This document shows, piece by piece, positions 4,149 through 59,648 of a stretch of 64,000 nucleotides of DNA. This DNA is from Candidatus Giovannonibacteria bacterium. GTDB taxonomy: Bacteria; Patescibacteriota; Minisyncoccia; JACPKW01; UBA11713. The notes beneath the pieces are model-generated. The model had not been told where the DNA came from and searched no databases. It worked only from the letters and a program-made list of their open reading frames with translations. Position numbers and translations under genes: made by a program. Location of the stretch: NCBI GenBank assembly GCA_016176285.1, contig JACOXM010000002.1, forward strand, positions 10,917 to 74,916, written 5' to 3'. Position 1 is the first letter of the stretch; each line of letters starts with the position of its first letter.

Positions 4149-4155
4149 TCTTTTA

Positions 4156-4360: not shown

Positions 4361-4390
4361 CGTAAATTATTTATCAACTAATAAGAGAAT

Positions 4391-6136
4391 ATGACACCAC
4401 AAAGACAATCCGTCGGACGGATTAAAACAAGAACGGCGCCCGCACTAAACGAAATGCCGAAACAAGCCGAAGGACCCGTTTTAAAATTTCTTCCACTGGG
4501 AGGATGCGGCGAGGTTACCAGAAGCTGCTACGTTTACGAATACAAAGATGACATTGTTATCGTGGACATGGGGCTGCAATTTCCGGAAGAGGATATGCCG
4601 GGAATAGATTACATTATTCCGAACGTGGAATATCTTATTCCAAAAAGAAAAAATATCCGAGGAGTGATCGTCACCCACGGCCACCTCGATCACATCGGGG
4701 CGATTCCCCACTTACTCGAGCCGTTGGGAAACCCCGTTATCTATACGAAACCCCTGACGCGCGGAATGATTTTGAAACGGCAGGAAGATTTCAGAGGAAC
4801 ACCTCACCCGAAAGTTGAACTCGTTGATGAAAACACTAAATTGAAATTAGGTTGTTTCGACGTGGAATTTTTCCATGTAAACCACAACATTCCGGATTCC
4901 ATGGGCGTCGTTCTTCGATCACCCGCGGGCACGGTCGTGCATACGGGCGACTGGAAATTCGATCACACTCCCGTGAATGAGCGTCCCGCCGACGTAGAGC
5001 GGCTCAAACAAATCGGCAAGGACAACGTGCTGCTTTTAGTTGCCGACTCGACCGGATCGCAATCCCCAGGAAAAACAATATCCGAATCGGAAATACAAAA
5101 AAATTTGGATGAAATTTTTACGAAAGCTAAGGGACGAATTATCGCCGCTACATTTTCATCCTTGTTAACGCGCGTACAGCAATTAATTTGGCTAGCGGAA
5201 AAATACGATAGAAAAGTTCTGATCGAGGGAACCTCAATGAAACAAAACGTTCAAGTTGCCCAGGAACTTGGATACCTGAAAATTAAAAAAGGCACAGTAA
5301 TCGGGCGCGAAGACCTCGCCCATACACCCAAAGAAAAAATAATAGTCGTATGCACCGGCGCGCAGGGCGAAGACAGGGCCGCGCTTATGCGCATCGCAAA
5401 CGGCGAGCATAAATACTTGCACTTGGAAAATACGGACTCCGTTATATTCTCTTCATCGGTAGTGCCGGGGAACGAAGCGTCCGTACAAAGATTAAAAGAT
5501 ATCCTATATAAAAAGGCTGAGAAGATTTTTCATTCAGAATCAATGGACATACATGCTTCCGGGCACGCAAAGGGAGACGATCTTAAAGAAATGATTCAAT
5601 TGATAAAGCCGAAATATTTCATTCCAATGCACGGCAATTATTTCATGTTAAAACTTCATTCCGATTTGGCAATTGATGCCGGAATAAAAAAAGAGAATGC
5701 TGTTATCGCGGAAGACGGAGAAATTATAGTTATGGATAAAAATGCCATTCGTAAATCCGGGCAAAAAGCCCCCGTAAACCTGATAATGGTTGATGGATTG
5801 GGCGTGGGAGACGTTAAAGAAGTTGTGCTTCGCGATAGGCAAATGCTCGCGGAAGACGGAATATTCGTAATTATATCCGTTGTAGATTCCGAAACCGGAA
5901 AAGTTAAAGGATCGCCGGATATTATTTCTAGGGGCTTCGTTTATTTGCGCGAATCCCGCGATCTCCTCTCGCAGGCAAGGCATTTAATTAGAAAAGTAAT
6001 CGAAGAATCCACCTCGCAAATGCACCCAATCAACTGGACCTTTCTCAAAGACGAACTCCGTGAAGAACTCGGAAAATTCTTATTCCGCAAAACAGAAAGA
6101 AGACCGATGGTATTGCCGGTGATCATCGAAGTCTAA
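4391..6136 (+). CDS. rnj: Ribonuclease J (metallo-beta-lactamase / beta-CASP RNase)
   Basis: HGHLDHIG zinc motif, beta-CASP region, ~580 aa and the typical RNase J N-terminus. Confidence 0.9.
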   Translation: MTPQRQSVGRIKTRTAPALNEMPKQAEGPVLKFLPLGGCGEVTRSCYVYEYKDDIVIVDMGLQFPEEDMPGIDYIIPNVEYLIPKRKNIRGVIVTHGHLDHIGAIPHLLEPLGNPVIYTKPLTRGMILKRQEDFRGTPHPKVELVDENTKLKLGCFDVEFFHVNHNIPDSMGVVLRSPAGTVVHTGDWKFDHTPVNERPADVERLKQIGKDNVLLLVADSTGSQSPGKTISESEIQKNLDEIFTKAKGRIIAATFSSLLTRVQQLIWLAEKYDRKVLIEGTSMKQNVQVAQELGYLKIKKGTVIGREDLAHTPKEKIIVVCTGAQGEDRAALMRIANGEHKYLHLENTDSVIFSSSVVPGNEASVQRLKDILYKKAEKIFHSESMDIHASGHAKGDDLKEMIQLIKPKYFIPMHGNYFMLKLHSDLAIDAGIKKENAVIAEDGEIIVMDKNAIRKSGQKAPVNLIMVDGLGVGDVKEVVLRDRQMLAEDGIFVIISVVDSETGKVKGSPDIISRGFVYLRESRDLLSQARHLIRKVIEESTSQMHPINWTFLKDELREELGKFLFRKTERRPMVLPVIIEV

Positions 6137-6141
6137 AAAAT

Positions 6142-6178
6142 AAAGAGGCGAGAATTTATTCTCGCCTCTTTATTTTTT
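6142..6178. terminator. Bidirectional rho-independent terminator between convergent rnj and the Cas2-fold gene
   Basis: Perfect hairpin AAAGAGGCGAGAA-TTTA-TTCTCGCCTCTTT, flanked by an A-run upstream and a T-run downstream. Confidence 0.6.
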
Positions 6179-6231
6179 AGAACTTACTCCTATAATACGC
6201 GATAGCGTAAAATAGGAACGGGTGAATAAAA

Positions 6232-16300: not shown

Positions 16301-16432
16301 CGATTCCGATAAGGCGGCGTTTGCCACCAACGGAACAGTTAGTGAAGCTCCCGACAGAAATATTGCTGTCGAAAAGCTTAAGAAAGTCACGGCAATTTTA
16401 TTCGCCATGCCATTCTTTGTTCGAATACTCAT
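13316..16432 (-). CDS. Giant secreted cell-surface protein with N-terminal peptidoglycan-binding domain and long Thr/Gly/Ser/Ala-rich beta-rich region
   Basis: Signal peptide, then a PG_binding_1-like segment (GSTGSDVTCLQQYLN...YFGPLTRTAVGKWQ), then ~900 aa of low-complexity T/G/S/A/V-rich sequence. Visibly GC-richer than its neighbours. Confidence 0.65.
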   Translation of the reverse strand: MSIRTKNGMANKIAVTFLSFSTAIFLSGASLTVPLVANAALSESQIQSILQLLQSFGADAATINNVNASLRGQPTTTPPAQTGNCNFTRSLTVGSTGSDVTCLQQYLNSSGFTVAASGAGSPGNETTYFGPLTRTAVGKWQQNYGITPAAGYFGPISRAKYVSLVSGGTTPTPIPTDGATPTPTIVGTGLMISAGTQPANHIAPGAAARVPFTVFKLTASNDGDITVNGVTVERGGPAADGAFIGVTLVDENGTQIGIAKTLNSTHQAVVGDPFVVKAGQTRTLTIGGNMDTKTNLADDAGNVATFSVIGINTAATVSGSLPITGAAHTINAALTIGSVTTSRGSLDPGASQTKNVGTTGYTFSSVKITAGSAEKVYLSSIRWNQTGSVGTADLANVKTYVDGTAYDTVVSSDGKYYTSTFPGNGILVDKGFSVDISIKGDIVGGSSRTVDFDIAKRTDIGLYGAEISKGASGPNWGFGIIPPLAGSAASADGAAFNNADDYYYDAAQVTVNTGTMNVSVATAVAAQNIGVNLLSQPLGALSVDVKGEPISVASITFQVSLVGEGANDDVDDITNAILVDETGTVVAGPVDGSATDSSGNEGTIPFTDTITFPTGAHTYTLKAKIGSDIDGGTTIAASTTPSGWGTVRGLTTSNTITPSPSSALNLPRMTVKSGALSVSVQSVPIAQSVIAGSSQFEFARYTFDATASGEDVRITTIPLAYGVAHAPTTGAANDLTGCKLYDGPVVVNSSNIVDPTAESSSTTFTFDGTGLTLTKGTAKTLSLKCNVRSGSTGAYLWGLDNGQQAAFTGATGVTSGQTIVETLTEANGQIMAASSGGTLTAVLDANSPGYKVVNAGATNVELARIRFSAANEDVDLRQVALQLTGTASNTANDLVGRRVTLWTTDGVSLGTAEFTTAQEDFATSSAIASGTFRITKDSSKVVVVKGDISNICNSCDNNKSGDFLKVDYDGQNVGINGNYGVGVASGSNISPSATDTSSSGVRIFRAYPELAHITLSSTEKTLTAGTTADKTLYKFSVM

Positions 16433-47301: not shown

Positions 47302-47329
47302 ATTATATACAAAAAACAGAAATTGTCAA
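47302..47329 (-). promoter_or_regulatory. Strong sigma70-like promoter for rnpB
   Basis: Minus strand reads TTGACA (47329-47324), a 16-nt spacer, then TATAAT (47307-47302), ~8 nt upstream of the inferred P1 5' end. Confidence 0.55.
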
Positions 47330-48468
47330 ATCTTCTTAGACCTTCTTAAAAAAGCCGGAATTGAATCCCATTCGGAGCTTTCCGGTTCGGAATTTTCCGC
47401 TTCTTCCGGGGAATTAGATTTTTCAATTCTGGCAAACTGCGAATCCTGGGAAAAAAGCGAAGCGTTTCTGCCGAAACTGTTAGGAAATCCCGAAGCAATT
47501 ACCGTTACTTTAACCTGCCCGTTCTTAAGCCTGTCGTCGCGTACCGCTCCGAAAATAATTTTCGCCTCCTTGTCCACATTTTCCGTTATCAGTTTGGCGG
47601 CTTCCTGCACTTCCCACATCGAAAGGTCTTCCTTTCCTGAAATCGTAAATAAAACTCCCTTAGCCCCTTCGGCGGAAACTTCAAGCAAAGGCGAATGTAT
47701 TGCGAGGCGCGCCGCTTCCTGCGCGCGGTTTTTACCCTGGGAAATTCCAATTCCAATTATTGCCGAACCTGAATTGGATAAAACCGTCCTCACGTCCGCA
47801 AAATCAACATTTATTATTCCCGGCGTTATGATCAAATCCGCAATTCCTTCCACGGCTTGCCGTAAAACTTCATCACACATCGCAAAAGCCTCCAAAAAAG
47901 GAGTGTCTCTTTCGACTATGTTTAAAAGCCGGTCATTGGGGATTACAATCATCGCGTCCACTGCTTTTCGCAAACGCACCAACCCTTCATCCGCAATACT
48001 TCTTCTGACATCTCCTTCGAAAGAAAATGGTTTCGTTACAATCGCAATCGTAAGCGCTCCTAAATTTTTTGCCGTCTCCGCAACAATCGGCGCACCTCCC
48101 GTACCGGTGCCGCCTCCAAAACCGCACGTTACAAATACCAAGTCAGCGCCCCTGACAAGTTCCTCAATTTCGCGCTTTGATTCCTCCGCAGCCATTCTTC
48201 CCAAATCCGGATTCATCCCCGCGCCAAGCCCCCGTGTAACTTCTTTCCCCATATGGAACTTTCTCGTAGCTAGGGAATTGTGAAGATCCTGGGCATCCGT
48301 ATTAATGGAAATAAAGTCCACTCCCTTTACTTTGGAACGAATCATGTGGTCCACTGCATTCTGTCCGGAACCACCGACTCCGATCACTTTTAGCCTTGCG
48401 GCTGTTTCAAATTCTGGCTTAACTTGCGGCATAATATTAAATCGTATACCTAAGAGTAGCCTCCCCAA
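47326..48468 (-). CDS. ftsZ: Cell division GTPase FtsZ
   Basis: Tubulin signature GGGTGTGGAPIVAE and IKVIGVGGSGQNAV. The true start is probably the internal Met (MPQVKPE). Confidence 0.9.
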   Translation of the reverse strand: MGRLLLGIRFNIMPQVKPEFETAARLKVIGVGGSGQNAVDHMIRSKVKGVDFISINTDAQDLHNSLATRKFHMGKEVTRGLGAGMNPDLGRMAAEESKREIEELVRGADLVFVTCGFGGGTGTGGAPIVAETAKNLGALTIAIVTKPFSFEGDVRRSIADEGLVRLRKAVDAMIVIPNDRLLNIVERDTPFLEAFAMCDEVLRQAVEGIADLIITPGIINVDFADVRTVLSNSGSAIIGIGISQGKNRAQEAARLAIHSPLLEVSAEGAKGVLFTISGKEDLSMWEVQEAAKLITENVDKEAKIIFGAVRDDRLKNGQVKVTVIASGFPNSFGRNASLFSQDSQFARIEKSNSPEEAENSEPESSEWDSIPAFLRRSKKI

Positions 48469-48508
48469 AAAAACCAGTCAAGGAGGATTTTTGAATTTAA
48501 TTTTTTAT

Positions 48509-48808
48509 CTATTTTACGCCCAAAACCGTTCTCAAGCGCAAGATTTCTTCTGATATAGCGTGTTCGATTTTGTCCGCGAGTCCGGGAACCCTTACGGCAA
48601 TTTGGGCCACCGTTTCCTCTAGATCAACTCCTTCATGAAGAGCATTTTGAATTTTGACCGCGTCTTCATCCGAAATATTCGAAACCAAAACGCTTATCAA
48701 AACTTCATTGAGCCTCTCATCAACTTTTTTTAAAATCTCCTCCCGGTCGTTCTCCGGAAGTTTTTCGAGATTCAAAGCTTCGGCAAGTTTATTTAGGTTT
48801 CTTGGCAT
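48509..48808 (-). CDS. Hypothetical small acidic protein
   Basis: ORF only. Overlaps the upstream ORF's end by 20 nt on the same strand. Confidence 0.3.
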   Translation of the reverse strand: MPRNLNKLAEALNLEKLPENDREEILKKVDERLNEVLISVLVSNISDEDAVKIQNALHEGVDLEETVAQIAVRVPGLADKIEHAISEEILRLRTVLGVK

Positions 48809-51647
48809 TTCTTCTTTCGTTAATAATATCGCGAATCATTCCTAATCTCGGATTATAAGCTTCTAACATTCCATCGATTCTAATAGTTCTTTCGTCTTTC
48901 TGACCTGCTTTAACATTTTTGTCCGCCGGAATTGCATCTCTAATATCACTTATCAAACCATCCCTCTCCCCTCTAAGTCTTTGCTCTTCAGTGGAAAGAT
49001 CGAGATCACTCATGCTTTCATATCTAGCTTTTTGCTCCGATATTTCTTTTACTCTTTTTTCTTCCAGATCTTTTAGCAATTCCTCCGAACTTTTTTCGGG
49101 TATTTTTTCTTCGTCTGAATTAATAGGTATCTTAACCGTTTTAGACTTTTTTATTTTTATTTGCTCCCTTTTCTTAGTAGCAATTTCGCCAAAAGAAGCC
49201 GTTAATGGCGGGGAATATTCGTTTTTCGTTCCGATATTTATCGCATCCGCAACACCCCTTATCGTTCTTTCCATATCTTTCATTTCTATATCCTTATTTA
49301 TTTTATTATTTTCGATATTAACGGTCTTAGAGTTATAATCGTTTCCCATTTCAGGATTTCTCAAACCCTCGTCTCCTTCGTATGGCGGCGGCTTTTTAAA
49401 TTGCTCATCAATCGTCGCTCCCGAGTCGCCAAGCCCATATTGCGAACCGAACGCATCACCCATTCCCCGCCTTAAGGCGCGCGCTCCGTCCTCGTCTTCG
49501 ATCCTATTCTCAACCTTCAGATCCTTCCCCTCGTTTCCCATATCCGGGCTTCGTGTTTCTTCATCCGGATGAAAGGGGCGCGAAGAAGCCGCTTTTTTAA
49601 AATCGCTGAAGAGTTCCCTATTCATTTTTTTCATCTGATTAAAAAAACCTTTTCTAATTTCCGCGTGATTTTTTAAATAGTTCTGCAAGGGCTGCGGTAT
49701 AGATAGATATATCGGTTTATTTTTTGCATCCTTATTCTTATTAATGACCCATTTTCTTTCCTCCTCCGGAAGCGTTCCATACCACTCAACAACCTCGCCG
49801 TAATTTCCCTTCCTCATATAATTTCCGGACGAGTGATCAAGAACATAATATTCTATGTCCCCCGGCATTAATTTATGAATTTTTCCATCCCGCTCGGTTT
49901 TCAAATCAATATTTTTTCCTTCAAGATATTCATAAAGCGGGTCTTCTTTTACATTATCCAAATACTCATCGGACTCGCGGACGGTTTTCATGGGCTCGTC
50001 GAAGTATGGTTCATCGGATTCAATATCCGATTCTTTCAGATCAATAATCTCTGGTTCCGGTTTTTTCTTTTCCTCTGTTTTTCTAAAACTTTTTACCTTT
50101 TCTTTCGCTCCATTATATATTTCTTTAGTTTCTTCTTTGTACGCGTAAACTCCTGCCGCACCGATTCCCGCCCCGTAAACCAAATACTGCTTCCAATTTT
50201 GAGATAGCCAGGACTCCGCCGCCGCCTCGACTGCTTTTTTCTCCCCCGCACTTGCGTACGCTATTTCCGGAGGAATACTTTTTACCGCTTCTTTCGCCGC
50301 GGCAAGACCCTTTTCCTCTGCCTCCTTTAAAATCGCGCCCGAAAAATCATTTGCGGAGTTATATTTCAGGTCATAATTTGTGACTTCCTCCCACACCCTT
50401 TCTCCAATTTTTGAAACGTATTCATTTTTAATGTGTTCCTTCCCGGCGTCAGTTAATAATTTCGCCTTATCAATCGCGGATGAGATTTCTCCTCCGGTTA
50501 ATTGGAAAGGGTCACCCGGGCGAATAACTTGCCCCCCGAAAAGATTTTTCAGAGAATCTTCGGCGTAAATAAGCTGGCTTTTATCAAGATTTAGATCAAT
50601 GCCCAATTCCTGTTTTTGCGAAATATAATCGTGTATTAATTTTCTTGAAATGTGCGTAAATCCATCGCCCTTATCCGCAACTGCGGTAAAAGTTTCTCCA
50701 TCGAGCCCCGCGGCACCCGCAGATTTTACACCCTCGACAGTTTCTCCGTATGAACTATATGCAATCCCCTTCGTATCTTCGCTGATGTTTTCGCCTATGC
50801 CGCCTGCAATAGCCTCCTTCGGACCCGCGGAAACATCACTATGAGAGAAATAATCCCCGACAATTCCCGCGACGTAAGCCCCTGCCGCCCCAACCACGGC
50901 TCCCTTCAAAGCGCCCTTCGCAACTTTTTTCCATTTATTTGAATCTAGCTTTAATTCTTTTCTAAGACTTTTAAATAAATCCTCCTTTTCTTTGCCCATC
51001 TCCGGCAATATTTTTTCCATCCGCCCCAGCTCCAAATATTTTTCAAGTTTTTCCTTGGTACTGGCGTTTTCCGCGCCGAGGCCATCCACAATTTTTTGAA
51101 GTTCATTCTGATTTTCTGCAAATTCCCGAATTTTCCTAGACTCCCTAACATAAATCTTGCTACCTTCCCAAATCGCGCCGGCGGAAGCTCCCGCGAGGAT
51201 GCCGTAGCCAAAAGCACTATTCGCGATCCATCTTACCGCCGATCCCGCCGCCATGCCGCCTAAAAAAGTTCCTATTTTTGATCCAAAAATTTTTTTCTTC
51301 TCTAATTTGGCAAGCGCTTCCTCCGGATTAAAATTGAAATTTTTAATTTTTTCTTTGGCGTTTTTTCCGAACGCCAAAAAATCTCTACCAAGTTCTTTCC
51401 AAGCCTCTTTTGCCCCTATCCCGAGGCCGCTCTCATCAAAAAAATCTTTAATTTTGCCTTGCGTATTTTTTATTGACGCGAAAAATTTGCCCCACCTACC
51501 ATCCTTTTTTTCTTCCTCGATCCGAAATTCCGCATCCTCGGCGTTATTTTTTTCTTCTTCGGTCAGCGGTTTAACCTTCTCCGCGGCATGTACCCTTTGT
51601 CCTTTTACATCTTCAAAATTATTTGCGTTCGGAGATTCTACTGTCAT
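48789..51647 (-). CDS. Large (952 aa) membrane protein with three Gly/Ala-zipper hydrophobic segments and long charged low-complexity regions
   Basis: Segments GGMAAGSAVRWIANSAFGYGILAGASAGAIWEG, GALKGAVVGAAGAYVAGIVG and YLVYGAGIGAAGVYAY. The rest is K/E/D-rich. No catalytic motif recognised. Confidence 0.4.
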   Translation of the reverse strand: MTVESPNANNFEDVKGQRVHAAEKVKPLTEEEKNNAEDAEFRIEEEKKDGRWGKFFASIKNTQGKIKDFFDESGLGIGAKEAWKELGRDFLAFGKNAKEKIKNFNFNPEEALAKLEKKKIFGSKIGTFLGGMAAGSAVRWIANSAFGYGILAGASAGAIWEGSKIYVRESRKIREFAENQNELQKIVDGLGAENASTKEKLEKYLELGRMEKILPEMGKEKEDLFKSLRKELKLDSNKWKKVAKGALKGAVVGAAGAYVAGIVGDYFSHSDVSAGPKEAIAGGIGENISEDTKGIAYSSYGETVEGVKSAGAAGLDGETFTAVADKGDGFTHISRKLIHDYISQKQELGIDLNLDKSQLIYAEDSLKNLFGGQVIRPGDPFQLTGGEISSAIDKAKLLTDAGKEHIKNEYVSKIGERVWEEVTNYDLKYNSANDFSGAILKEAEEKGLAAAKEAVKSIPPEIAYASAGEKKAVEAAAESWLSQNWKQYLVYGAGIGAAGVYAYKEETKEIYNGAKEKVKSFRKTEEKKKPEPEIIDLKESDIESDEPYFDEPMKTVRESDEYLDNVKEDPLYEYLEGKNIDLKTERDGKIHKLMPGDIEYYVLDHSSGNYMRKGNYGEVVEWYGTLPEEERKWVINKNKDAKNKPIYLSIPQPLQNYLKNHAEIRKGFFNQMKKMNRELFSDFKKAASSRPFHPDEETRSPDMGNEGKDLKVENRIEDEDGARALRRGMGDAFGSQYGLGDSGATIDEQFKKPPPYEGDEGLRNPEMGNDYNSKTVNIENNKINKDIEMKDMERTIRGVADAINIGTKNEYSPPLTASFGEIATKKREQIKIKKSKTVKIPINSDEEKIPEKSSEELLKDLEEKRVKEISEQKARYESMSDLDLSTEEQRLRGERDGLISDIRDAIPADKNVKAGQKDERTIRIDGMLEAYNPRLGMIRDIINERRNAKKPK

Positions 51648-51669
51648 TAATATTATTAAATCACAAAAA

Positions 51670-52056
51670 TCACCCTAAGTCATTCAAATCCTGTGCAATG
51701 CCTTCTTTGATTACGGTCAATTCTTCTTCTGGAACGGAGAGAAGACTTGTAAAAAATTCAAAGCGCTCTTTATCGTCTAAATTCGGGTTTAAAAGCATTT
51801 CTGCTATTTTTTCTCTTTCCTCTTCGAAAATAAAAACTCTATAATTTCCGCTCCGAAGATTACCCACTACCGCCCAAAAATAATTTTCATCGTCCGCCGT
51901 AATTTCTTCGGATAAAATCGTGCCACCTTCGTCCCTCATCAGGGAAACCGGCCCCGAAACCAATCTTTTTATTAAAAAATTGCCACCAAGATTCTCATCT
52001 TTTAAAAAACTCCCCAAATATTTTTCTTCCTTGTCGAATATATATGCTTTCATCAA
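51670..52056 (-). CDS. Hypothetical protein
   Basis: ORF with a 4-nt overlap to the downstream gene, which suggests an operon. Confidence 0.3.
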   Translation of the reverse strand: MMKAYIFDKEEKYLGSFLKDENLGGNFLIKRLVSGPVSLMRDEGGTILSEEITADDENYFWAVVGNLRSGNYRVFIFEEEREKIAEMLLNPNLDDKERFEFFTSLLSVPEEELTVIKEGIAQDLNDLG

Positions 52057-53072
52057 TATAACTTTTTATTAGGATTGCCTAATTTTATTTCGGGAATATT
52101 CTGTTTATTTTCTTTATCAAGGTAATCACCAACAAGCTCTCGATCCTTTTTAGGGAGGGCATTTCCGTAGAATAAACTAACTTTTACTATTTCAGCCCAA
52201 TATTCATTGGTTTTATGCATCAACTCCGCTTTTTTATCCTTATTATTAATTGCCTCCACATATTCGGAAAAGTAGCGATCTTTCGAGGTGACCCTCTCTA
52301 TTGTTCTTGCAAACAAATCGATCCTGGATGGCATATCGCGTCTTCTATTCACCCAGCTATTCGCATGGCCCATTTCATGATGAAGAGTAGCTATGACTCC
52401 AGTTTCGGTCCAATAATTTTTATAATAACTAATTTTAGATCTGTGTTTTTCATTATTGAAATTAAAGTTAGCTATCGGTATTCTTCTTTTGACCCCATAC
52501 TCTTTTAACATTTCTAAATCTTTATTTATAAAATTTATTTCATCCACGCTTTCAATCCACGAATGGGGGAAATGATTTAATTCCTCCTGGATAGTACGGG
52601 GATCAATGCCAATTTTCCCGGCTTCGATGGAATTAATATTTGGAAAATTTAATATCTTATCCTTGAATCTCCCCTTTACTTCTTCATCCTCCCCAGCAGT
52701 TCCAAAATAAATATCAAAATTGTCGCGGCCAATTTTTTTTTCGATATATCTCGCTTGTTTTATAGTTTTTTCGATTTTGTTTCTTTCTTTGACATCCATC
52801 CCGCCTTCTTTAACAGATTTATCCGCGTTTTTCACATATTCCGTAACGCTCTGCTTTTGCCCTAGCATCCCCTCAACGGCCTCCCTATTAAAACCGATAG
52901 TCGCCGGGGATATGAGAGACGAAGCCACATAAATAGAAGAAATTGCCACTGTTCTTGAAATCGCCCTTTTAAACCTTCCTCGAATTGAAGTAATCGCCCC
53001 TTCACGTTTTTCTTTTCCGGATGGCTTTTCCGGTGTTACTGGCGTTATATCTCTAGCATTTTCGAAACTCAT
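52053..53072 (-). CDS. Membrane-anchored putative zinc metallopeptidase (HExxH)
   Basis: N-terminal TM (VAISSIYVASSLISPATIGF) and an ATLHHEMGHANSW zincin-like HExxH motif. Confidence 0.45.
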   Translation of the reverse strand: MSFENARDITPVTPEKPSGKEKREGAITSIRGRFKRAISRTVAISSIYVASSLISPATIGFNREAVEGMLGQKQSVTEYVKNADKSVKEGGMDVKERNKIEKTIKQARYIEKKIGRDNFDIYFGTAGEDEEVKGRFKDKILNFPNINSIEAGKIGIDPRTIQEELNHFPHSWIESVDEINFINKDLEMLKEYGVKRRIPIANFNFNNEKHRSKISYYKNYWTETGVIATLHHEMGHANSWVNRRRDMPSRIDLFARTIERVTSKDRYFSEYVEAINNKDKKAELMHKTNEYWAEIVKVSLFYGNALPKKDRELVGDYLDKENKQNIPEIKLGNPNKKLY

Positions 53073-53073
53073 A

Positions 53074-53325
53074 TCATCTGTAAATGTCTTTTCTATGACC
53101 TAATCTCAAAACAAAAATATTATCGCCGGAAACATCAAAAATAATTCTATAATCCCCGATTCGAAAACGGAATTGCCCAAATTGACTGTCTTTGAGCTGT
53201 TCGGAATAACGAAGTGGATTTTTTTGAGAAATAAAATATTCGAGTTTTGCGCGAATCTGATCTCTTACCTTACGATCGAGCTTAAGCCAGTCTTTTTTTG
53301 CCCGATTCGTAAAAAATACTTTCAT
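53074..53325 (-). CDS. Type II toxin, RelE/ParE family
   Basis: MKVFFTNRAKKDWLKLDRKVRDQIRAKLEYF...FRFRIGDYRIIFDVSGDNIFVLRLGHRKDIY is the canonical RelE/ParE pattern. Start corrected to the Met 4 nt after the antitoxin stop. Confidence 0.75.
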   Translation of the reverse strand: MKVFFTNRAKKDWLKLDRKVRDQIRAKLEYFISQKNPLRYSEQLKDSQFGQFRFRIGDYRIIFDVSGDNIFVLRLGHRKDIYR

Positions 53326-53329
53326 CTTT

Positions 53330-53575
53330 TTATTTATATTTAGTTTTTTTGAAACGTCCCGTTTTAAAGTCGAGTTCAAATAATTTCCCATGTGCTATAT
53401 CCCGCCTTCCTTCTTTTACGGCCTTCTGAAAAGATAAAGAATTTCGCATTTCCTCTTCTTCCATTAATAGTTCCAATTTTTTCCAATCTTTTAGGGAAAC
53501 TATAACTACCGGCTCTCCTTTAAAGTGGGTTTTCTCAATTTTTCTATTTAACATTGTGATGTTTCTCGAAGCCAT
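53330..53575 (-). CDS. Type II antitoxin, Phd/YefM-like
   Basis: GEPVVIVSLKDWKKLELLMEEEE resembles the Phd/YefM core. Sits immediately upstream of the toxin. Confidence 0.6.
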   Translation of the reverse strand: MASRNITMLNRKIEKTHFKGEPVVIVSLKDWKKLELLMEEEEMRNSLSFQKAVKEGRRDIAHGKLFELDFKTGRFKKTKYK

Positions 53576-53670
53576 ATATCAACTATAGACGAAAAATCCC
53601 CCAAAGTCCAACGCGGATTTTTGTCCGCGTCAGAGGGAAATAGAAATCCTCACTCTCAAAACTTATAGAC

Positions 53671-54921
53671 TTATTTTTTTCTCAACAATTCTTTACTTTG
53701 TTTATAATCAGAAACGTGTTTCCTAATTTCTTCCGCGCTCACAGAGCCATCTATTACAGATCCGTCCTTATTGACATCATAAACCCCAAAAGACGTAATA
53801 CCTATAATTTCCGGTTCGCCTTCGCTATCTAATAAGATTAAGGGACCTCCGCTCATTCCCGGTATATTGTCACCCTTTTTAGCAGAAAGGGAGGAGTTAT
53901 TTTCTTCGCTTGGAGGAATGTCAAATACCTGCAATTTTGAAAATCTCTTATCAGCTTTATGTAAAATCGCGTTCGGCTTAGAACGTTCGGTATAATCAAA
54001 TAAGCCTCCTGTGATTTTTTCTTTGCGTTCGAATTCTTTTATGGAAACTTCAAATGGAAAGCCGAAAGGATGCCCCACCGAGGCAAGTTTACTTCCGCGC
54101 TTTAATTTGCCTACGGATTTTTCCGAAGCGATTTTCAAGGCTTTTGCAGTTTCCCCGCCTATAGTTTTTTCAAAATTCTCCTCCGGCTCCACTATAGCGA
54201 GATCATTTGCCTCATCGGAAAAAACCCGTCGTCCTTTAAAATTTTTACCATCGATTGTAAAAAAAGAAAAATCATTTTCGTCGTTCATCGCAACATGATA
54301 ATTTGTAATGATGACTTTGCGTTCGTCCGCATCAATTATCGCTCCGCTTCCAGCAAATTTATTTCCTTTGAATAAGATAACCGTTCCCTTCATAACTTTC
54401 TGTATTCTTTCCATATACCTATGTGCCTCTTTGGGATGACTGTAGATAAACTCCTTTCCTAAAATGATATCCGGCTTCGAAAAATAAGGAACCTCACCAT
54501 TGGCAGCCTTACTAATCGCCAGCATTCTAACCACATCAGGTAAAATTTTGTAAGTCGTTTCTAGCTGCGGAGAAACTTCCAAACCGCCGCGCTCTTCGAA
54601 TGCTTTATTCACACGCTTGAATAACTCCATATTTTCATCGTCCAAAATCGTACGTTCAAATTCTCTTGGGTTCGATTGAGCTACTACGTATTCCTCCGTA
54701 GTTTCCGGTGCTACCGCTTCTTTTTTTGCCGGTGAGAAAACCGTAATTCCCGCCAAAACCAAAGCAGCTCCTAGGCGTGAAATTTTTTTTAAGAATGAAC
54801 CATCTTCAGGTTTTTCTAAAATCTGGGCAAACCTTTCCTTTAATTCAATGATCTCTCTCGACTCCGTTTGTGAATTTCTTTCCGGACCAGTTTCTTGTGG
54901 TTTTTCTGGATTAAACGCCAC
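53671..54921 (-). CDS. Membrane-anchored trypsin-like (S1/chymotrypsin-fold) serine protease
   Basis: Catalytic triad contexts: TNYHVA (His), ANDLAIV (Asp) and GMSGGPLIL (Ser, the GDSGGP-like motif). N-terminal TM. Confidence 0.6.
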   Translation of the reverse strand: MAFNPEKPQETGPERNSQTESREIIELKERFAQILEKPEDGSFLKKISRLGAALVLAGITVFSPAKKEAVAPETTEEYVVAQSNPREFERTILDDENMELFKRVNKAFEERGGLEVSPQLETTYKILPDVVRMLAISKAANGEVPYFSKPDIILGKEFIYSHPKEAHRYMERIQKVMKGTVILFKGNKFAGSGAIIDADERKVIITNYHVAMNDENDFSFFTIDGKNFKGRRVFSDEANDLAIVEPEENFEKTIGGETAKALKIASEKSVGKLKRGSKLASVGHPFGFPFEVSIKEFERKEKITGGLFDYTERSKPNAILHKADKRFSKLQVFDIPPSEENNSSLSAKKGDNIPGMSGGPLILLDSEGEPEIIGITSFGVYDVNKDGSVIDGSVSAEEIRKHVSDYKQSKELLRKK

Positions 54922-55056
54922 TTTCTTCAGTTAAAAATTTATCGATGGCTTCGGCCATCTCCATCAAAGAGATTTCGTCCTTTTTTAATTTCTCTGCCAA
55001 TTCCTTGGAAAGTTTTCTTGCTTCTTCCTCTTTTTTTAAATTTTTCTTGTCCATAA

Positions 55057-57498
55057 TTATCCTGAATTAATCAAACTCGCCCCTGCATGCCTAATTCTAA
55101 TCTCCTCCTCCACTTCCTCGCGGGGGCGGGCGTATTTGGAGCGGGAAAGCTGTTTAATATATTGCGCCATTTCGGGGTTGCCGGTTTCGGGGCGGATTGT
55201 TTTAAGGTTAAACGGCTTCGAGGTTTGGCCGTCAATTAAAAGTTTCATGTAAGCGTTAAAGTTATCGATATTTAAGAGATCGTAAGAATTAAATACCGGC
55301 TCGAATTGTTTTTCCATATATTCCCCGTCGTCGGAGCCGATTCTAAAAGAGCAAATCGAACCTACGTTTCCAAAGACAGCTTTTTTAATATCCTCGTCGA
55401 GCTGTCCTATAAATTGATGCACTAGAGTCAGATTCAATTTATACTTTCTCGCCTCGGAAAGAATTGTGGCAATGGATTTTGTGGTCACGTTTTGGAACTC
55501 ATCAATATATAGATAAAAATCTTTGCGGTCCTCCTCCGCGCTGTCTACGCGGGATAATGCCGCCATCAGAATTTTCCCGACCATTATTAATCCTAGGAGG
55601 CTCGCGTTAAGTTCGCCAAGCCGCCCCTTGGATAAATTCAACAAAAGAATTTTTTTCTGGTCCATCGCCTCGCGGACATTGAACGCTGATTTTTCCTGCG
55701 CGATAATCGGGCGCATAATTTCGTTCGCGAGGAAAGTATCGAATTTCGAAACCACATAAGGAACCATATTTTGCAAAGATGCTTCGCCCCCCGCCTTCTC
55801 CGCGATCTGCTTCCAAAAAGTGTCAACGACGATATTTTTCGAACGCGAAAGCTTATAGTCCCGGTATGCCTTATCCGCGAGCACCCGTTCGATTTCAAGA
55901 AGAGTATTTCCGGATTCCGGGTCCTCCATTACAAGCAAAGTCGCGTTTCTGAAATATTGCTCGAACATCGGCCCGCCAGAGACCGACATATTGAAAAGTT
56001 TATTGAAAATTTCCAAAAGTTCATTCACTATCATAGTCTTCTGTTCGGGACGCATAGGATCATATTCGAGCATGTTGAGGCCCATCGGATATTGAACATC
56101 ACCCGGATCAAAATAAATTACATCTTCGGCTCTTTCTTGTGGTATTAATCCCAAAATTTTTTCTATCAACTCTCCGTGCGGATCAATTACCGCAACACCT
56201 TCGCCATTTTTAATATCTTGCGCGATCATATTATGCATAAGCGCGGATTTCCCGGTGCCGGTCTGCCCGATGATATAGAAGTGCCGCCTCCGGTCGTCTT
56301 TTTTTATGTAAACATTTCCCAGTTCGCCGCGGAAAGAACTATTCCCCAAAAGAACGCCCTCCCTCGGCATATTTACGGGCGGGGTCGCTTCGCGGGCCTT
56401 AAGCATCCTAACCTGCGGGGCGGCTTTTTTTGAATAAGGGAAATGATACAAGCTTGAAATTTCCTCCACATTCATAGGCATCGCCTCGCTTTCATCAAAG
56501 AATCGGAAAGAAAAATTTTCAGTTAATTTTTTAAGCCCTGCGCCAAAAACATTTTTTATTTTAAAGGCATTCCCCTCGGGAATCGAAAATTGGTAAAACC
56601 CGGCTTCGAACTCTTTCATTATCCTGTCAACTTCCTCGTTATTTTCGGCGGAAACTATCAGGCGTACATTTACGTCGAAAGTGATTTTAGAAACTTTTTC
56701 CTCAAGAAGCTTCACCAATTCCTCGTCGTAAACGGGGGCATTGGTTTTTTCTTCTGGTTTAGGTTTTTTCTGCTGTTTGAAAACGTCTATCGTGTGCTCC
56801 GCGATATTCTTCTCACCCAAAACATCCCGCCTTTTCTTCCCTTCTTTTAACCTTTCTATAACTTTGTGGATGGGCTTCTCTAATTTTTTCCCCGCCGGGC
56901 GCAAAACTATCTGCAGCGCCGCACCCTCTCCGAATTCCTTGATTTTTGAAAAAGCGGAAGTGATGGTCTCGACCGGATCGGACTCAATTTTCTGGTAAGT
57001 TTTAATGGGAAGAAATTTATTTCTCTCTAACCCCAAAAGTGCCCCGCGAGAAACTCCGTTCGGATGAAAAATATTATAATCCTCCACTTTTTCGATTTTC
57101 GCGTCGGGGTAAGCGCCATGAATCTGGCTTTCAAGCAATTTCGCAAATTTCCTTGGAAACGCTACATAAAAAAAGATCTCCGACCCGTCGTTGTGCGCGG
57201 CGAGTTCCAGCGCGAAAGAATTGCCCTTGCCGAAAATTTCCCCGAAAATAGTTCCGCTCTTTAAACCCGAAAGTCCCATGAGAAATTTTTCCATATGCGC
57301 GATGAAATTTTTCCTGGCTTCCGTTGGATTTTCGTTTTTTTCTTCGCGGTTTTCCGGAAGCGAAACTAAAAAAAGCTGCTCCGAGAGGCTCGAAGAGATC
57401 GAATTTATCCGCTTATATCTTAAAAAAACGTATAAAATTAAAAGGATCGGCAGAGCCGCGAAAAACAAAATCGTGAGAAGCAGATAATCAGAACTCAT
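55057..57498 (-). CDS. Membrane-anchored FtsK/HerA/VirB4/TraG-superfamily P-loop ATPase (813 aa)
   Basis: N-terminal TM. Walker A HFYIIGQTGTGKS followed by VAVIDPHGE (DPxGE, as in HerA/TraG-type ATPases). Walker B FYLYIDEFQN. Post-Walker-B segment KYKLNLTLVHQ. Confidence 0.5.
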   Translation of the reverse strand: MSSDYLLLTILFFAALPILLILYVFLRYKRINSISSSLSEQLFLVSLPENREEKNENPTEARKNFIAHMEKFLMGLSGLKSGTIFGEIFGKGNSFALELAAHNDGSEIFFYVAFPRKFAKLLESQIHGAYPDAKIEKVEDYNIFHPNGVSRGALLGLERNKFLPIKTYQKIESDPVETITSAFSKIKEFGEGAALQIVLRPAGKKLEKPIHKVIERLKEGKKRRDVLGEKNIAEHTIDVFKQQKKPKPEEKTNAPVYDEELVKLLEEKVSKITFDVNVRLIVSAENNEEVDRIMKEFEAGFYQFSIPEGNAFKIKNVFGAGLKKLTENFSFRFFDESEAMPMNVEEISSLYHFPYSKKAAPQVRMLKAREATPPVNMPREGVLLGNSSFRGELGNVYIKKDDRRRHFYIIGQTGTGKSALMHNMIAQDIKNGEGVAVIDPHGELIEKILGLIPQERAEDVIYFDPGDVQYPMGLNMLEYDPMRPEQKTMIVNELLEIFNKLFNMSVSGGPMFEQYFRNATLLVMEDPESGNTLLEIERVLADKAYRDYKLSRSKNIVVDTFWKQIAEKAGGEASLQNMVPYVVSKFDTFLANEIMRPIIAQEKSAFNVREAMDQKKILLLNLSKGRLGELNASLLGLIMVGKILMAALSRVDSAEEDRKDFYLYIDEFQNVTTKSIATILSEARKYKLNLTLVHQFIGQLDEDIKKAVFGNVGSICSFRIGSDDGEYMEKQFEPVFNSYDLLNIDNFNAYMKLLIDGQTSKPFNLKTIRPETGNPEMAQYIKQLSRSKYARPREEVEEEIRIRHAGASLINSG

Positions 57499-57891
57499 TT
57501 ATTTCAGTTTTCTCGCGTCCAAAAGCTTTTGATAATATTTATCCGCCAAAGTGTCATGGAATTCGTCCATTAAATGGGGGTTATTAAGAGACCGGGCAAC
57601 CTTAAAGGCGGAAGCCAGATCTTTTGAAAGCGCCACATTCACGAGCCCTTCGATTATTTCGTGATGCTTTTTTTCCTGTAAATCCGCCGAAGTTTTTTTT
57701 GCATCATCGTCGGAAATAGTTGATCTTGCCGGAGGCGGCAGAGTCGTCGCCGTGGGAACTTCTTTAATTACGTCTTTTACAATTTCCCTCTCTTCTTTTG
57801 ACTCCACGCCGGAAGCCACAAGCTCGCGTTTTTTTGCCTCGAGCCGCTCCTCAAGCCATTTTATATCTTCATGTATTTGTTCCTGTGCCAT
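57499..57891 (-). CDS. Hypothetical coiled-coil protein, translationally coupled to the ATPase gene
   Basis: Its stop abuts the ATPase start codon. Charged, helical composition. Confidence 0.3.
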   Translation of the reverse strand: MAQEQIHEDIKWLEERLEAKKRELVASGVESKEEREIVKDVIKEVPTATTLPPPARSTISDDDAKKTSADLQEKKHHEIIEGLVNVALSKDLASAFKVARSLNNPHLMDEFHDTLADKYYQKLLDARKLK

Positions 57892-57924
57892 AGACTTATT
57901 TTAACCTATTGTTAAAATTAACGC

Positions 57925-58482
57925 ATGGAAAAAACACCAGGCCCTGAACAGCCACCCACACAGGAGGAGATTATTCAAAAAGAGGCCTTAAGAACTGAAA
58001 AAATCTCATCTAACTTATTAAATATAAGCACCGATAGGGAAAAGAATAAATTTTATCCTCTCTTAAATTTAAATTTTGACTTAAAACCATATATAAAAGA
58101 AATTATTCCGGAGAAAAAAGGGAATGAAATACAAGGTGAAAGTGAACTAAGGGATGCGCAGAACAAAACTATAAGTCTCATCTTTGAATCTGCCGCGCAG
58201 ATCGCGATGGATAAAAAATCGCAGATAAAAATAGTTCGAGATGATCCTAATTCTCTAATGGCCTTATACCAAGCAATGAATGTGGGACAAAGATATTATG
58301 AAGAACTTAGCCATAGCCGACCGGAAGAAATTAAATCGGTTTTGGAAAACCTACTCATTAAGAGCAAAAGAAAAGAAAAACCAAAGGAAAATGAAATTAT
58401 AGAATTTTCTAAAATACTTACTAAGGCACAACTATCATTGAGAAAAAGAATAGAAGCTCTGCGCGGATATCAAGGCAGATAA
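57925..58482 (+). CDS. Hypothetical protein
   Basis: ORF only. Divergent from the ATPase operon. Confidence 0.3.
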   Translation: MEKTPGPEQPPTQEEIIQKEALRTEKISSNLLNISTDREKNKFYPLLNLNFDLKPYIKEIIPEKKGNEIQGESELRDAQNKTISLIFESAAQIAMDKKSQIKIVRDDPNSLMALYQAMNVGQRYYEELSHSRPEEIKSVLENLLIKSKRKEKPKENEIIEFSKILTKAQLSLRKRIEALRGYQGR

Positions 58483-58484
58483 AC

Positions 58485-59648
58485 TTACGGAATCAGCGAT
58501 CTCAGCCAGGCGGAAATTTTTTGGCGCCACTCCGACGGTTTTTTCGATTCCGGCAGAGATTCCTGATCTAAGCCTATGAGCGCAGCTCCCAGGGCGGAAG
58601 ACCAAACCGGATCCTGCAATCTGTGCCCGCTTGCCAGCTCTTCACATGTCCCAAGAGTTACAGGAAGCCTTAATGCGTATTTTGAGAATTCTTCAAGCCC
58701 CGTGAGCTTGGAAGCACCGCCGGACAAAACCACTCCACCCGGCAAAAGCCCCTGCCGCCCAATTTTTTTCAGGTGATTATCTATAAGCTCGAAGGTGTCT
58801 TCAAGCCTCGCTTCAACAATATGCTGAAATTTTTTCTTTGCCTGCGCCGTTTCGTCCGGAAGCTTCATCTCCATTTTAATTTCCTCGGCTTTATCCAGGC
58901 TTATTTGAAAGCCAAGCGCGATGTCATTCGTAATGTGCGATCCCCCATACGGGAAAACCGCGACGGAATAAGGCATATTCTCCTCAAAAACTGCTAGATC
59001 GGTCGTATCTGACCCGATATCCAAAACAAGCGCTCCCGCTTCCTTCTGCCTCTGCGTGAGTAATGATCTCGCCGCGGCTATCGGACCCGGTATTACGTCA
59101 TCAATTATTACGCCCGCCTCCTCAACCACAGAAATCATTTCTTTTAGCGGCTTTAACATAGAAGTTATGAATAACACCTCCGCCTCCAAATTTTCTCCCC
59201 TGATACCGACGGGGTCCCTGAAGGCCAATTCCGAATCAACGCTATAATTAAGTCCGTATGTATCTAAAATTTCCTTGTTTGATAAATCTTTGGAGGAAGG
59301 CTTCGCCTGCGCCAAAACCCTTTCTACGTCATAATGCCCAACCTCCCCGGATGCTTGGGCAATAGCGATACGCGCCCTTACTTTGTTAAAACTTATTGCC
59401 GGGGTTCCAAAAGCCAAAAAGGCATGTTTAAAAGGGATCCCGGAGAATCTTTCAACTTCCTCAATTGCCGACTTTAACCTTTTTAATAGAAGCTGTGGGG
59501 AATTAACCATCCCTCTCCTAACCCCCTGCGAAGGCACTAGGGAAGCGCCCAAAATATGAATGCCGGAATCAGGCGACTTCCTTTCCGCAGTTAATACTTT
59601 AATTCCGTGTGAACCGATATCTAAAACGTGGACTATATTCCTAGGCAT
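58485..59648 (-). CDS. Actin-like ATPase, FtsA-like (alternatively PilM-like)
   Basis: HVLDIGSHGIKVL phosphate-1 motif, then VLDIGSDTTDLAVF and GVVLSGGASKLTGL. Confidence 0.55.
   Translation of the reverse strand: MPRNIVHVLDIGSHGIKVLTAERKSPDSGIHILGASLVPSQGVRRGMVNSPQLLLKRLKSAIEEVERFSGIPFKHAFLAFGTPAISFNKVRARIAIAQASGEVGHYDVERVLAQAKPSSKDLSNKEILDTYGLNYSVDSELAFRDPVGIRGENLEAEVLFITSMLKPLKEMISVVEEAGVIIDDVIPGPIAAARSLLTQRQKEAGALVLDIGSDTTDLAVFEENMPYSVAVFPYGGSHITNDIALGFQISLDKAEEIKMEMKLPDETAQAKKKFQHIVEARLEDTFELIDNHLKKIGRQGLLPGGVVLSGGASKLTGLEEFSKYALRLPVTLGTCEELASGHRLQDPVWSSALGAALIGLDQESLPESKKPSEWRQKISAWLRSLIP

Follow-up and report, generated by a model that had tools for sequence, protein, structure and literature searches.

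The two-gene locus and its features

The window, the whole 64-kb stretch of DNA that was analysed, carries on its minus strand a two-gene unit from the chromosome of Candidatus Giovannonibacteria, an ultra-small bacterium of groundwater, in which a 130-aa open reading frame (p130) is followed by the gene for an 813-aa ATPase. The unit comprises the following features.

57499..57891, minus strand: 130-aa partner protein p130; open reading frame whose TAA stop abuts the ATPase ATG
55057..57498, minus strand: 813-aa ATPase, predicted to belong to the coupling-protein (T4CP; VirD4/TrwB) branch; transmembrane (TM) anchor, VirB4-type N-domain as modelled, nucleotide-binding domain with helical insert
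57418..57486, minus strand: N-terminal TM helix, residues ~5-27, from the sequence; AF2 helix at 3-38
56449..57393, minus strand: N-domain, residues 36-350, Pfam DUF8128 in precomputed annotation; alpha/beta, structural homologue of the VirB4/TrwK N-terminal domain
55189..56352, minus strand: nucleotide-binding (motor) domain, residues 383-770; T4CP-like by sequence
56245..56268, minus strand: Walker A GQTGTGKS, residues 411-418; G411, Q412, T413, G414, G416 and K417 invariant
56170..56190, minus strand: VIDPHGE strand motif, residues 437-443; aligns with TrwB VIVDPNGD
55699..56043, minus strand: all-helical insert, residues 486-600; located where T4CPs have their all-alpha domain
55489..55509, minus strand: Walker B YIDEFQN, residues 664-670; aligns with TrwB LFIDELASL...GRKAGLRVVAGLQSTSQL
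54944..54959, minus strand: terminator-like hairpin with a T-run, after the ATPase stop and before the next gene; weak evidence only

The minus-strand junction reads ...AAA CTG AAA TAA ATG AGT TCT..., with the p130 stop directly against the ATPase start, as the initial annotation had described. The GC content of the ATPase gene was typical of the window, and a promoter/terminator scan of the region yielded a number of sites not above shuffled expectation. A variable AT-rich stretch with a toxin-antitoxin (TA) module adjoins the locus, and the genes downstream of the ATPase encode a trypsin-like protease, an HExxH protein, and a ParE toxin that is preceded by an 81-aa ORF. The nearest tRNAs are ~15 kb or more away. 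An identical ATPase protein is present in NCBI under the name 'type IV secretory system conjugative DNA transfer family protein'; the class of the gene was known already (a T4SS DNA-transfer family protein), and this basic classification is unchanged by our analysis. No description of the domain make-up or of the obligatory p130 helper was found in the searchable literature.

Domain architecture and family assignment of the ATPase

The single N-terminal TM segment proposed earlier was recovered as a hydrophobic helix at residues ~5-27 (YLLLTILFFAALPILLILYVFLRY), after which comes the basic stretch RYKR, and the AF2 model placed a helix over residues 3-38. The basic residues after the TM helix suggest that the C-terminal bulk of the ATPase is cytoplasmic. 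Walker A (GQTGTGKS) and Walker B (DEFQN, here taken as YIDEFQN), both of which the initial annotation had named, were located at residues 411-418 and 664-670. VIDPHGE was also present as claimed, although not immediately after Walker A but as the next strand, ~19 residues further on. Invariant EARKY and HQF.GQ motifs lie downstream of Walker B, and the Walker A, DPxG, Walker B, RK and Q motifs of the motor align with those of TrwB. These motifs were invariant or almost invariant in an alignment of 25 sequences, and the family-wide counts (82 members) gave Walker A in 82/82, DPHG in all, DEFQ in 80/83, and EARK[YF] in 82/82. Such near-invariance across the family indicates that the motifs are not degenerate, a possibility that had been raised against the assignment, and the motor is predicted from them to be catalytically intact.

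The placement of the protein in the HerA/VirB4/TraG-type translocase superfamily, put forward in the initial annotation, was right and could be narrowed to a probable VirD4/TrwB motor joined to a VirB4-type N-domain. The Pfam families T4SS-DNA_transf (PF02534; 38.9 bits, cut-off 20.1) and TrwB_AAD_bind (PF10412; 38 bits, cut-off 20.5) both matched the ATPase, with DUF87 also above its cut-off, and CagE_TrbE_VirB and AAA_10 were not matched in the same scan. The best NCBIfam matches were TraD and VirD4-like CD1115; the ATPase stayed below their full-length equivalog cut-offs and is therefore no equivalog of TraD or VirD4. Sequence and profile searches of the PDB gave TrwB and DotL as best matches, and VirB4 chains were absent from the PDB profile matches. 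In pairwise hhalign comparisons, TrwB aligned over 254 columns (Prob 95.7, E 9e-9), whereas TrwK/VirB4 aligned in the Walker A region only (Prob 12.5). The all-helical insert (residues 486-600) qualifies as a T4CP all-alpha domain, and the ATPase did not qualify by the FtsK_SpoIIIE motor profile and gamma domain. The motor fold alone was equally close to the VirB4 CTD, DptH, TrwB and HerA. The sequence-level comparisons place the motor in the VirD4/TrwB coupling-protein branch of the FtsK/HerA superfamily.

A different relationship was suggested by the N-domain. Full-length Foldseek searches with the ATPase returned TrwK/VirB4 as top matches, and the model indicates that the N-domain has the VirB4-type N-terminal domain fold, a match to a single PDB representative; the HAS barrel of HerA is not its fold. 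The N-domain family comprises 1,644 clusters at 50% identity. The two-domain build is common to the ATPase and large Firmicutes plasmid ATPases annotated 'DUF87 domain-containing protein', such as an 885-aa protein of the B. subtilis plasmid NZ_CP154917.1, whose N-domain gave a strong hhalign match (Prob 97.1, E 5.9e-11) and whose motor is 28-30% identical. Likewise, phrog_5156 from Bacillus/Geobacillus phages matched ATPase residues 65-800 (E 5.7e-81). Hhalign comparisons of the N-domain with the second large ATP-binding protein of the Bacillus plasmid and with the N-terminal region of a Thermococcus pT33-3 ATP-binding protein gave no signal.

Conservation of the ATPase gene and its link to p130

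Members of the ATPase family occur in at least 578 GTDB species, and identity exceeded 50% across many candidate phyla of Parcubacteria. More than 7,677 homologues were scored, which together with the identical NCBI entry puts the observation well beyond chance. Compared with the closest relative, the ATPase was 78.5% identical, a value lying between those of FtsZ (83%) and HisRS (71.5%), with FtsA at 67%. These identities point to a vertically inherited, slowly evolving chromosomal core gene of Parcubacteria. Looking up the clusters to which 10 distant members of the family belong yielded almost no names.

The genomic surroundings were far less conserved than the gene. Neither a relaxase nor T4SS genes (VirB4, VirB6, VirB8, pilins) occurred in the window or within +/-10 kb of 83 homologous loci, VirB3, VirB6 and VirB8 homologues were not found beside the ATPase, and scanning 20 large ORFs of the window against Pfam revealed housekeeping genes only. 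A local secretion or conjugation cluster is absent from the 64-kb window, and a local T4SS, conjugation or ICE context was rejected, given the housekeeping ORFs and the distant tRNAs. The earlier argument from the adjacent proteases and toxin-antitoxin pair did not survive the comparison either: tblastn did not match the trypsin-like protease to any of the 83 loci, and matches to the TA and HExxH genes were restricted to the closest relatives, L001 and L002. These neighbours are lineage-specific filler. In the window and in L001/L002, the module lies between ftsA and ftsZ. A conserved cell-division link was rejected, as this arrangement is confined to those loci; FtsA and FtsZ were near the ATPase in only 2 of the 83 loci, and FtsQ lay within ~5 kb in 15.

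The sole conserved neighbour of the ATPase is p130, and the genetic link between the two is obligate. An HMM-detected p130 homologue was directly upstream of the ATPase or fused to it in 78/83 loci, which strongly supports the functional link that had been proposed for the 130-aa ORF. Where the genes are split, the gap measured -10 to +20 nt in 20 of 41 loci and less than 300 nt in 38 of 41. Where they are fused, p130 stands at the ATPase N-terminus in place of the TM helix; with a Kyte-Doolittle maximum of at least 1.6 as the TM call, the helix was absent in 36/36 fused forms and present in 45/46 split forms. All but one of the fused forms (35/36) fell within one clade, in which the gene is set after secY-adk-map and before ndk. 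In p130, a Pro-rich linker separates a charged helix at the N-terminus from a conserved helical domain at the C-terminus (motif NPHLLDEFHDTLAD); the first 30 residues form a conserved, charged, heptad-like helix, and the protein has no TM segments. Searches of p130 against Pfam, PDB and PADLOC gave no significant match (for Pfam and PDB even by profile at E up to 10), and the nuclease or Sir2-like partner domain for which the initial annotation had advised a search was not among its features. DUF5663 proteins precede p130 in 14 loci; a 99-aa ORF at 48509-48808 of the window showed no BLASTP similarity to them.

Possible roles of the module and comparison with known systems

On balance, we lean towards the reading that p130 and the T4CP-branch ATPase form a chromosomal module, most likely serving a T4SS encoded elsewhere in the genome. 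The ATPase is translationally coupled to p130, a soluble helical protein, and would act close to the membrane, by analogy with its relatives, as a hexameric NTP-driven translocase or substrate receptor. The VirB4 N-terminal domain binds VirB3 and VirB8 and dimerises, and the VirB4-like N-domain may by analogy provide a docking surface to partner membrane proteins. As a bound regulator or adaptor, p130 could play a role akin to that of CagZ on Cagbeta or of the DotL adaptors. The module would then most likely feed protein or DNA substrates to the chromosomal, relaxase-less, monoderm-type T4SS of most Patescibacteria. According to PMC12102498, the T4SS of this group is nested in the monoderm MPF-FATA class, its VirB4 forms a separate, well-defined clade, and VirD4-type homologues, which are counted apart, number 5,713 in 2,918 of 3,035 Patescibacteria genomes (96%), only 148 of them near virB4. 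Because T4SS and relaxase genes are absent from the window and the 83 loci, the T4SS link comes from family membership alone; the fused forms that have no membrane anchor, unusual for a T4CP, speak against it.

The same forms are compatible with exaptation for a T4SS-independent housekeeping task, such as DNA translocation in segregation or division, DNA uptake, or other export, with p130 replacing the T4SS contacts. This is a genuine but less probable alternative. It would accommodate a gene that evolves as slowly as FtsZ or HisRS and sits within housekeeping arrays (ftsA/ftsZ; secY-adk-map/ndk; FtsQ in the 15 loci mentioned above), as well as orphan relatives in Bacillus phages and on non-mobilizable plasmids. 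In PMC12102498, moreover, T4CP homologues occur in more genomes (2,918) than VirB4 (2,417) and almost never adjoin it, and authors of published work on a homologue did not exclude exaptation. Against exaptation, division-gene synteny is not conserved, and no particular alternative substrate is backed by positive evidence. A bolder reading, which we regard as speculative and rather improbable, takes the DUF8128 family as a third, hybrid lineage of T4SS-type ATPases with a VirB4 N-terminal domain on a VirD4-like motor, maybe an intermediate that survived from the VirB4/VirD4 split. Domestication in Parcubacteria would have made this lineage, with p130 as a new recruit, a near-essential chromosomal machine independent of conjugation and possibly of T4SS. 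If true, the fused clade, which lacks the anchor, would demonstrate that the machine can do without membrane tethering.

The remaining explanations agree less well with the data. That the protein is a true VirB4, a T4SS assembly or pilus ATPase mislabelled by sequence models, appears unlikely. Its length and two-domain build, the Foldseek ranking, and the small upstream, sometimes N-terminally fused protein, which recalls VirB3-VirB4 (2 nt apart in R388), would all fit, but the hhalign, PDB profile and Pfam results described above point to TrwB instead. Other observations against a VirB4 identity are the separate Patescibacteria VirB4 clade recorded in PMC12102498, the Bacillus plasmid homologue, which lies beside a relaxase-family gene while a different large ATP-binding protein is in the transfer cluster, and the missing TM segments of p130, unlike VirB3. 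A HerA-type anti-phage defence ATPase with neighbouring effectors, the HerA-Sir2/DUF4297 role entertained at the outset, is largely refuted and very improbable. PADLOC did return partial, ATPase-only matches (mad8, 1.1e-15; HerA models, 2.5e-8), which with the DUF87 match and the downstream protease, ParE toxin with its 81-aa ORF, and HExxH protein had made defence worth considering. However, these matches were confined to the generic P-loop region, no other neighbour had a PADLOC match fitting the MADS system, Sir2, DUF4297 and NurA-like partners were not found, and p130 had no defence match. The VirB4-like rather than HAS-barrel N-domain, the neighbours unconserved beyond L001/L002, and a family that is near-universal, vertically inherited and slowly evolving, unlike defence islands, argue further against it. 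Least probable of all is that the locus is the remnant of a decaying prophage or integrated conjugative element. Homologues on plasmids and in phages and the adjoining variable AT-rich, TA-bearing stretch might recall one, yet the ORF is intact with all motifs invariant, its GC content is genome-typical, no integrase, relaxase or flanking tRNA was found at the window locus, and such a remnant is contradicted by the conservation across Parcubacteria candidate phyla.

Patescibacteria live in dependence on host cells and make up much of the diversity of bacteria. In Saccharibacteria, T4SS genes were found to be essential for epibiotic growth (PMC10633639). To our knowledge, no relaxase or cluster-encoded coupling protein is recognised there. 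A near-universal, housekeeping-like, partner-locked T4CP-like ATPase would offer a handle on what these bacteria move across the membrane. The combination of a VirB4-type N-domain with a VirD4-type motor, common to Firmicutes plasmid and phage proteins, could bear on the divergence of VirB4 and VirD4, and also on the docking site of coupling proteins at the T4SS inner-membrane complex, which is called unresolved in PMC12857230.

Among known systems, the ATPase resembles the VirD4/TrwB T4CPs (TrwB of R388, DotL, Cagbeta) in its motor sequence, shared motifs, helical insert, and N-terminal anchor. The N-terminal TM domain of T4CPs typically has two helices, whereas the window protein has one and the fused forms none. 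The ATPase further differs from T4CPs in the 350-aa VirB4-type domain between anchor and motor, in standing alone in housekeeping arrays with no relaxase or T4SS genes nearby, in its vertical, slow evolution, and in the substitution of the anchor by a fused partner in one large clade. A small dedicated partner is shared with CagZ-Cagbeta (PDB 8dol) and the DotL adaptors, here encoded beside the ATPase. A tightly coupled small upstream gene, sometimes fused N-terminally, is likewise found in VirB3-VirB4; unlike VirB4/TrwK, the ATPase has a motor sequence that is not VirB4-like and no T4SS cluster, and Patescibacteria possess a separate VirB4.

The B. subtilis plasmid protein, unlike the ATPase, lies beside a replication-relaxation family protein, a conjugal transfer cluster, and the second large ATP-binding protein; a p130 homologue is not detectable there, whereas p130 accompanies the Parcubacteria ATPase. 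The plasmid and phage homologues are mobile-element genes, in contrast to the chromosomal core gene described here. By description, chromosomal and rarely near virB4, the ATPase fits the orphan T4CP homologues of Quinonero-Coronel et al. 2025 (PMC12102498), and the DUF8128/VirB4-like N-domain, p130, and the split/fused dichotomy do not appear in the searched passages of that paper.

Motor and N-terminal domain of the ATPase

Two open reading frames in the window sequence form the module, and three motifs mark its motor:

57499-57891, minus strand: p130, the 130-aa partner ORF
55057-57498, minus strand: the 813-aa ATPase
ATPase residues 411-418: Walker A, GQTGTGKS
ATPase residues 437-443: VIDPHGE, one strand beyond Walker A
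ATPase residues 664-670: Walker B, YIDEFQN

At the junction, read on the minus strand as AAA TAA followed by ATG AGT, the p130 stop codon directly abuts the ATPase start codon, as the initial annotation had described. The single N-terminal transmembrane (TM) segment that it had assigned to the 813-aa protein is also seen, as a hydrophobic helix at residues ~5-27; because this helix is followed by the basic sequence RYKR, the bulk of the protein is predicted to be cytoplasmic. The residues of all three motifs were invariant in a 25-sequence alignment. Homologues in other genomes retain Walker A (82/82), DPHG (all), EARK[YF] (82/82), and DEFQ (80/83), showing that the catalytic motifs are intact. 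The Walker A and B motifs noted initially thus proved conserved across 82 homologues, with no sign of the degeneracy raised as a possible objection; VIDPHGE is likewise present, albeit one strand later rather than immediately after Walker A.

The identical protein in NCBI is named 'type IV secretory system conjugative DNA transfer family protein [Candidatus Giovannonibacteria]'. The initial assignment to HerA/VirB4/TraG-type translocases is right. In Pfam, T4SS-DNA_transf (38.9 bits; cut-off 20.1), TrwB_AAD_bind (38.0 bits; cut-off 20.5), and the generic DUF87 all exceeded their cut-offs. The best NCBIfam matches were partial (TraD, VirD4-like CD1115, and CedD), none reaching an equivalog cut-off. 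Sequence searches of PDB, using either the single protein or the family profile, ranked TrwB and DotL best and HerA weaker, with VirB4 not among the matches. Profile-profile comparison (hhalign) of the family alignment with R388 proteins taken from the plasmid record matched TrwB with a probability of 95.7% (E 9e-9) over 254 columns, from Walker A to the Q motif and including the helical insert, versus 12.5% for TrwK/VirB4, limited to the Walker A region. Taken together, these sequence comparisons place the motor in the VirD4/TrwB branch.

Residues ~36-390 carry the label PF26449/DUF8128 in precomputed Pfam annotation, and the local Pfam copy gave no match over this region. Foldseek searches with the full-length AF2 model (pLDDT 79.5) returned TrwK/VirB4 of R388 as top matches, with ~900 columns aligned, ahead of Cagbeta, HerA, and DotL. 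On the strength of this modeled structure, DUF8128 is a VirB4-type N-terminal domain, detectable through its fold and not its sequence. The ATPase is a VirB4-like N-domain joined to a VirD4-like motor; it shares the N-domain fold of VirB4, but not its motor sequence.

The p130 partner and distribution of the family

The claimed coupling to the 130-aa ORF extends well beyond this genome. An HMM of p130 detected a homologue in 78 of the 83 loci carrying the ATPase, either as a separate ORF just upstream (split form) or as the ATPase's own N-terminal ~140 residues (fused form). In split loci the gap was -10 to +20 nt in 20/41 and below 300 nt in 38/41. An N-terminal TM helix was present in 45/46 split-form ATPases, the exception being truncated by a contig end, and in none of the 36 fused forms; membrane anchor and fused p130 are therefore mutually exclusive. 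All but one of the fused forms (35/36) fell into a single clade of a neighbor-joining tree. p130 is an obligate genetic partner of the ATPase, and since the genes are fused or tightly coupled, there is strong genetic evidence for a physical complex, whose nature we infer. p130 had no match in Pfam, PDB, or PADLOC, so that the initially proposed search of this ORF for a nuclease or Sir2-like partner found none.

More than 7,677 homologues of the ATPase were scored, and the family occurs in at least 578 GTDB species genomes; nearly all of the 80 loci listed were labeled as Parcubacteria or Paceibacteria lineages. The N-domain alone recovered 1,644 clusters at 50% identity. Identity of the ATPase to its closest relative (78.5%) was exceeded, among the proteins compared, only by FtsZ (83%), with Pth (74%), HisRS (71.5%), LepB (68%), and FtsA (67%) lower in the same genome pair; p130 evolves faster (55.6%). 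This wide distribution and high identity indicate that the ATPase behaves as a core gene, not as a mobile or defense gene.

Genomic surroundings

The window is ordinary chromosome, encoding UvrC, RNase J, TrpRS, FtsX, RF2, LepA, MurJ, FtsZ, FtsA, HisRS, LepB, and Pth, with four tRNAs each at least ~15 kb from the ATPase gene and even GC content around it. It also encodes a large, otherwise unannotated envelope protein of 1,038 aa (13316-16432, minus strand), in which PG_binding_1 is the sole recognized domain. The genes around the module are as follows:

58485-59648: ftsA
53671-54921: trypsin-like protease with an N-terminal TM
53330-53575: 81-aa ORF without a Pfam match, presumably the antitoxin
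53074-53391: ParE toxin, overlapping the 81-aa upstream ORF
52053-53072: 339-aa HExxH (HEMGH-motif) protein without a Pfam match
51670-54921: variable islet containing the preceding four, AT-rich (GC 0.36 at 52-54 kb)
47326-48468: ftsZ

Within 47326-59648, ftsA and ftsZ stand some 10 kb apart, parted by inserted genes that, with the exception of one ORF, are on the minus strand. This arrangement around the module is common only to the window and the loci of the two closest relatives (L001 and L002), and is absent from the 81 other ATPase loci. The islet also holds a 128-aa ORF overlapping that of the HEMGH-motif protein by 4 nt. The adjacent protease and toxin-antitoxin genes, initially taken as support for a defense or secretion role, lend none: the protease has a counterpart in none of the 83 loci, and the ParE module and HExxH protein recur only in L001/L002, which carry a HicAB pair beside ParE at the islet position and lack the protease. 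These genes constitute a variable islet outside the ATPase system.

Two further ORFs lie between ftsZ and ftsA. In a 952-aa protein (48789-51647), several hydrophobic segments rich in Gly/Ala are found alongside long, charged stretches of low complexity; searches of Pfam, NCBIfam, PHROG, and PADLOC gave no match to it, and tblastn matched it in only one of 83 loci, L001/L002 having an ORF of 267 aa in the corresponding place. On the opposite strand, a 185-aa ORF (57925-58482, plus strand) fills the 590 nt that separate ftsA from p130, its start lying 33 nt from that of p130; neither Pfam nor PADLOC gave a match to it, nor did tblastn in the 83 loci, and in L001 ftsA and p130 are 27 nt apart. 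This ORF could represent an insertion specific to the lineage, or might not be a gene.

When the ORFs lying up to 10 kb to either side in 82 loci were clustered all against all, no widely conserved neighbor besides p130 emerged. Those neighbors that are specific to a clade are housekeeping genes: the fused clade has SecY-Adk-Map upstream and Ndk downstream, and other loci have GtrA, DnaX, PMT-type glycosyltransferases, FtsQ, or DUF5663.

Mobile-element relatives and probable role

The motor matched 374 plasmid records (tblastn). Bacillus plasmids of 24-28 kb encode as homologue an 885-aa 'DUF87 domain-containing protein' (3558-6215 on B. subtilis plasmid NZ_CP154917.1). The next gene downstream specifies a replication-relaxation family protein, and beyond it come genes for conjugal transfer and for another large ATP-binding protein, of 847 aa. 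The 885-aa protein shares homology with the ATPase N-domain over its N-terminal region (hhalign probability 97.1, E 5.9e-11, 289 columns; hmmsearch E 3.6e-17); the plasmid's other large ATPase gave no match to that domain, and no p130 homologue was detectable beside the 885-aa protein. Among the further plasmid matches were 'TraM recognition domain' proteins of haloarchaea, plasmids of Sulfolobus, and, on a 103-kb Thermococcus nautili plasmid, an ATP-binding protein of 1,370 aa. In phages, phrog_5156 matched residues 65-800 (E 5.7e-81), and Bacillus/Geobacillus homologues include phage G gp156, TP-84, CP-51, and SPO1 gp27.4. Firmicutes mobile elements thus already have the N-domain plus motor build as an ATPase variant, encoded at the position expected for a coupling protein.

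phrog_5156 is annotated 'unknown function', and some Bacillus plasmid and phage homologues have the VirB4-like N-domain. Many Bacillus/Geobacillus phages, lytic ones included, encode such coupling-protein-like homologues. Outside the CPR, the motor's closest relatives are 395-aa motor-only orphans on alphaproteobacterial plasmids (33-35% identity, E ~1e-65); the one on Sulfitobacter plasmid NZ_CP081110.1 (7929-9116) adjoins transposases and lacks the N-domain.

Far more confidence attaches to the family assignment than to the role. A HerA-type defense function, suggested initially, is very unlikely given the core-gene behavior, the lack of a conserved effector neighbor, and the absence of a PADLOC match for p130; local secretion fares no better, as no VirB4, VirB6, or relaxase (nor integrase) was found in the 64-kb window. 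The best overall explanation, to which we give somewhat better than even chances, is a type IV coupling protein (T4CP)-branch motor with a VirB4-type N-domain and p130, most likely delivering substrates to the chromosomal, relaxase-less type IV secretion system (T4SS) of Patescibacteria encoded elsewhere. Judging from what is established for the family, it would work as a hexamer on the cytoplasmic side of the membrane, as an NTP-driven translocase or a substrate receptor, with p130 as a putative regulator or adaptor; the N-domain may provide a docking or dimerization surface, since its VirB4 counterpart contacts both VirB3 and VirB8 and connects protomers (PMC12857230). The main rival, an exapted role independent of any T4SS, is less likely, albeit with evidence of its own: fused forms without an anchor exist, the S. 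epibionticum t4cp homologue was reported to be non-essential for epibiotic growth, and PMC12102498 gives T4CP homologues in 2,918 of 3,035 Patescibacteria genomes versus VirB4 in 2,417, with only 148 T4CP homologues near virB4.

The searchable literature yielded neither DUF8128 as a VirB4-type N-domain, nor its sharing with Firmicutes plasmid and phage ATPases, nor an obligate p130 partner with a split/fused, anchor/no-anchor dichotomy. The locus itself is of a known kind, because the gene is so annotated and orphan VirD4-type homologues of Patescibacteria are already published (PMC12102498). The same paper reports a monoderm (MPF-FATA) ancestry for the Patescibacteria T4SS, with which the variant found on Firmicutes mobile elements is consistent.
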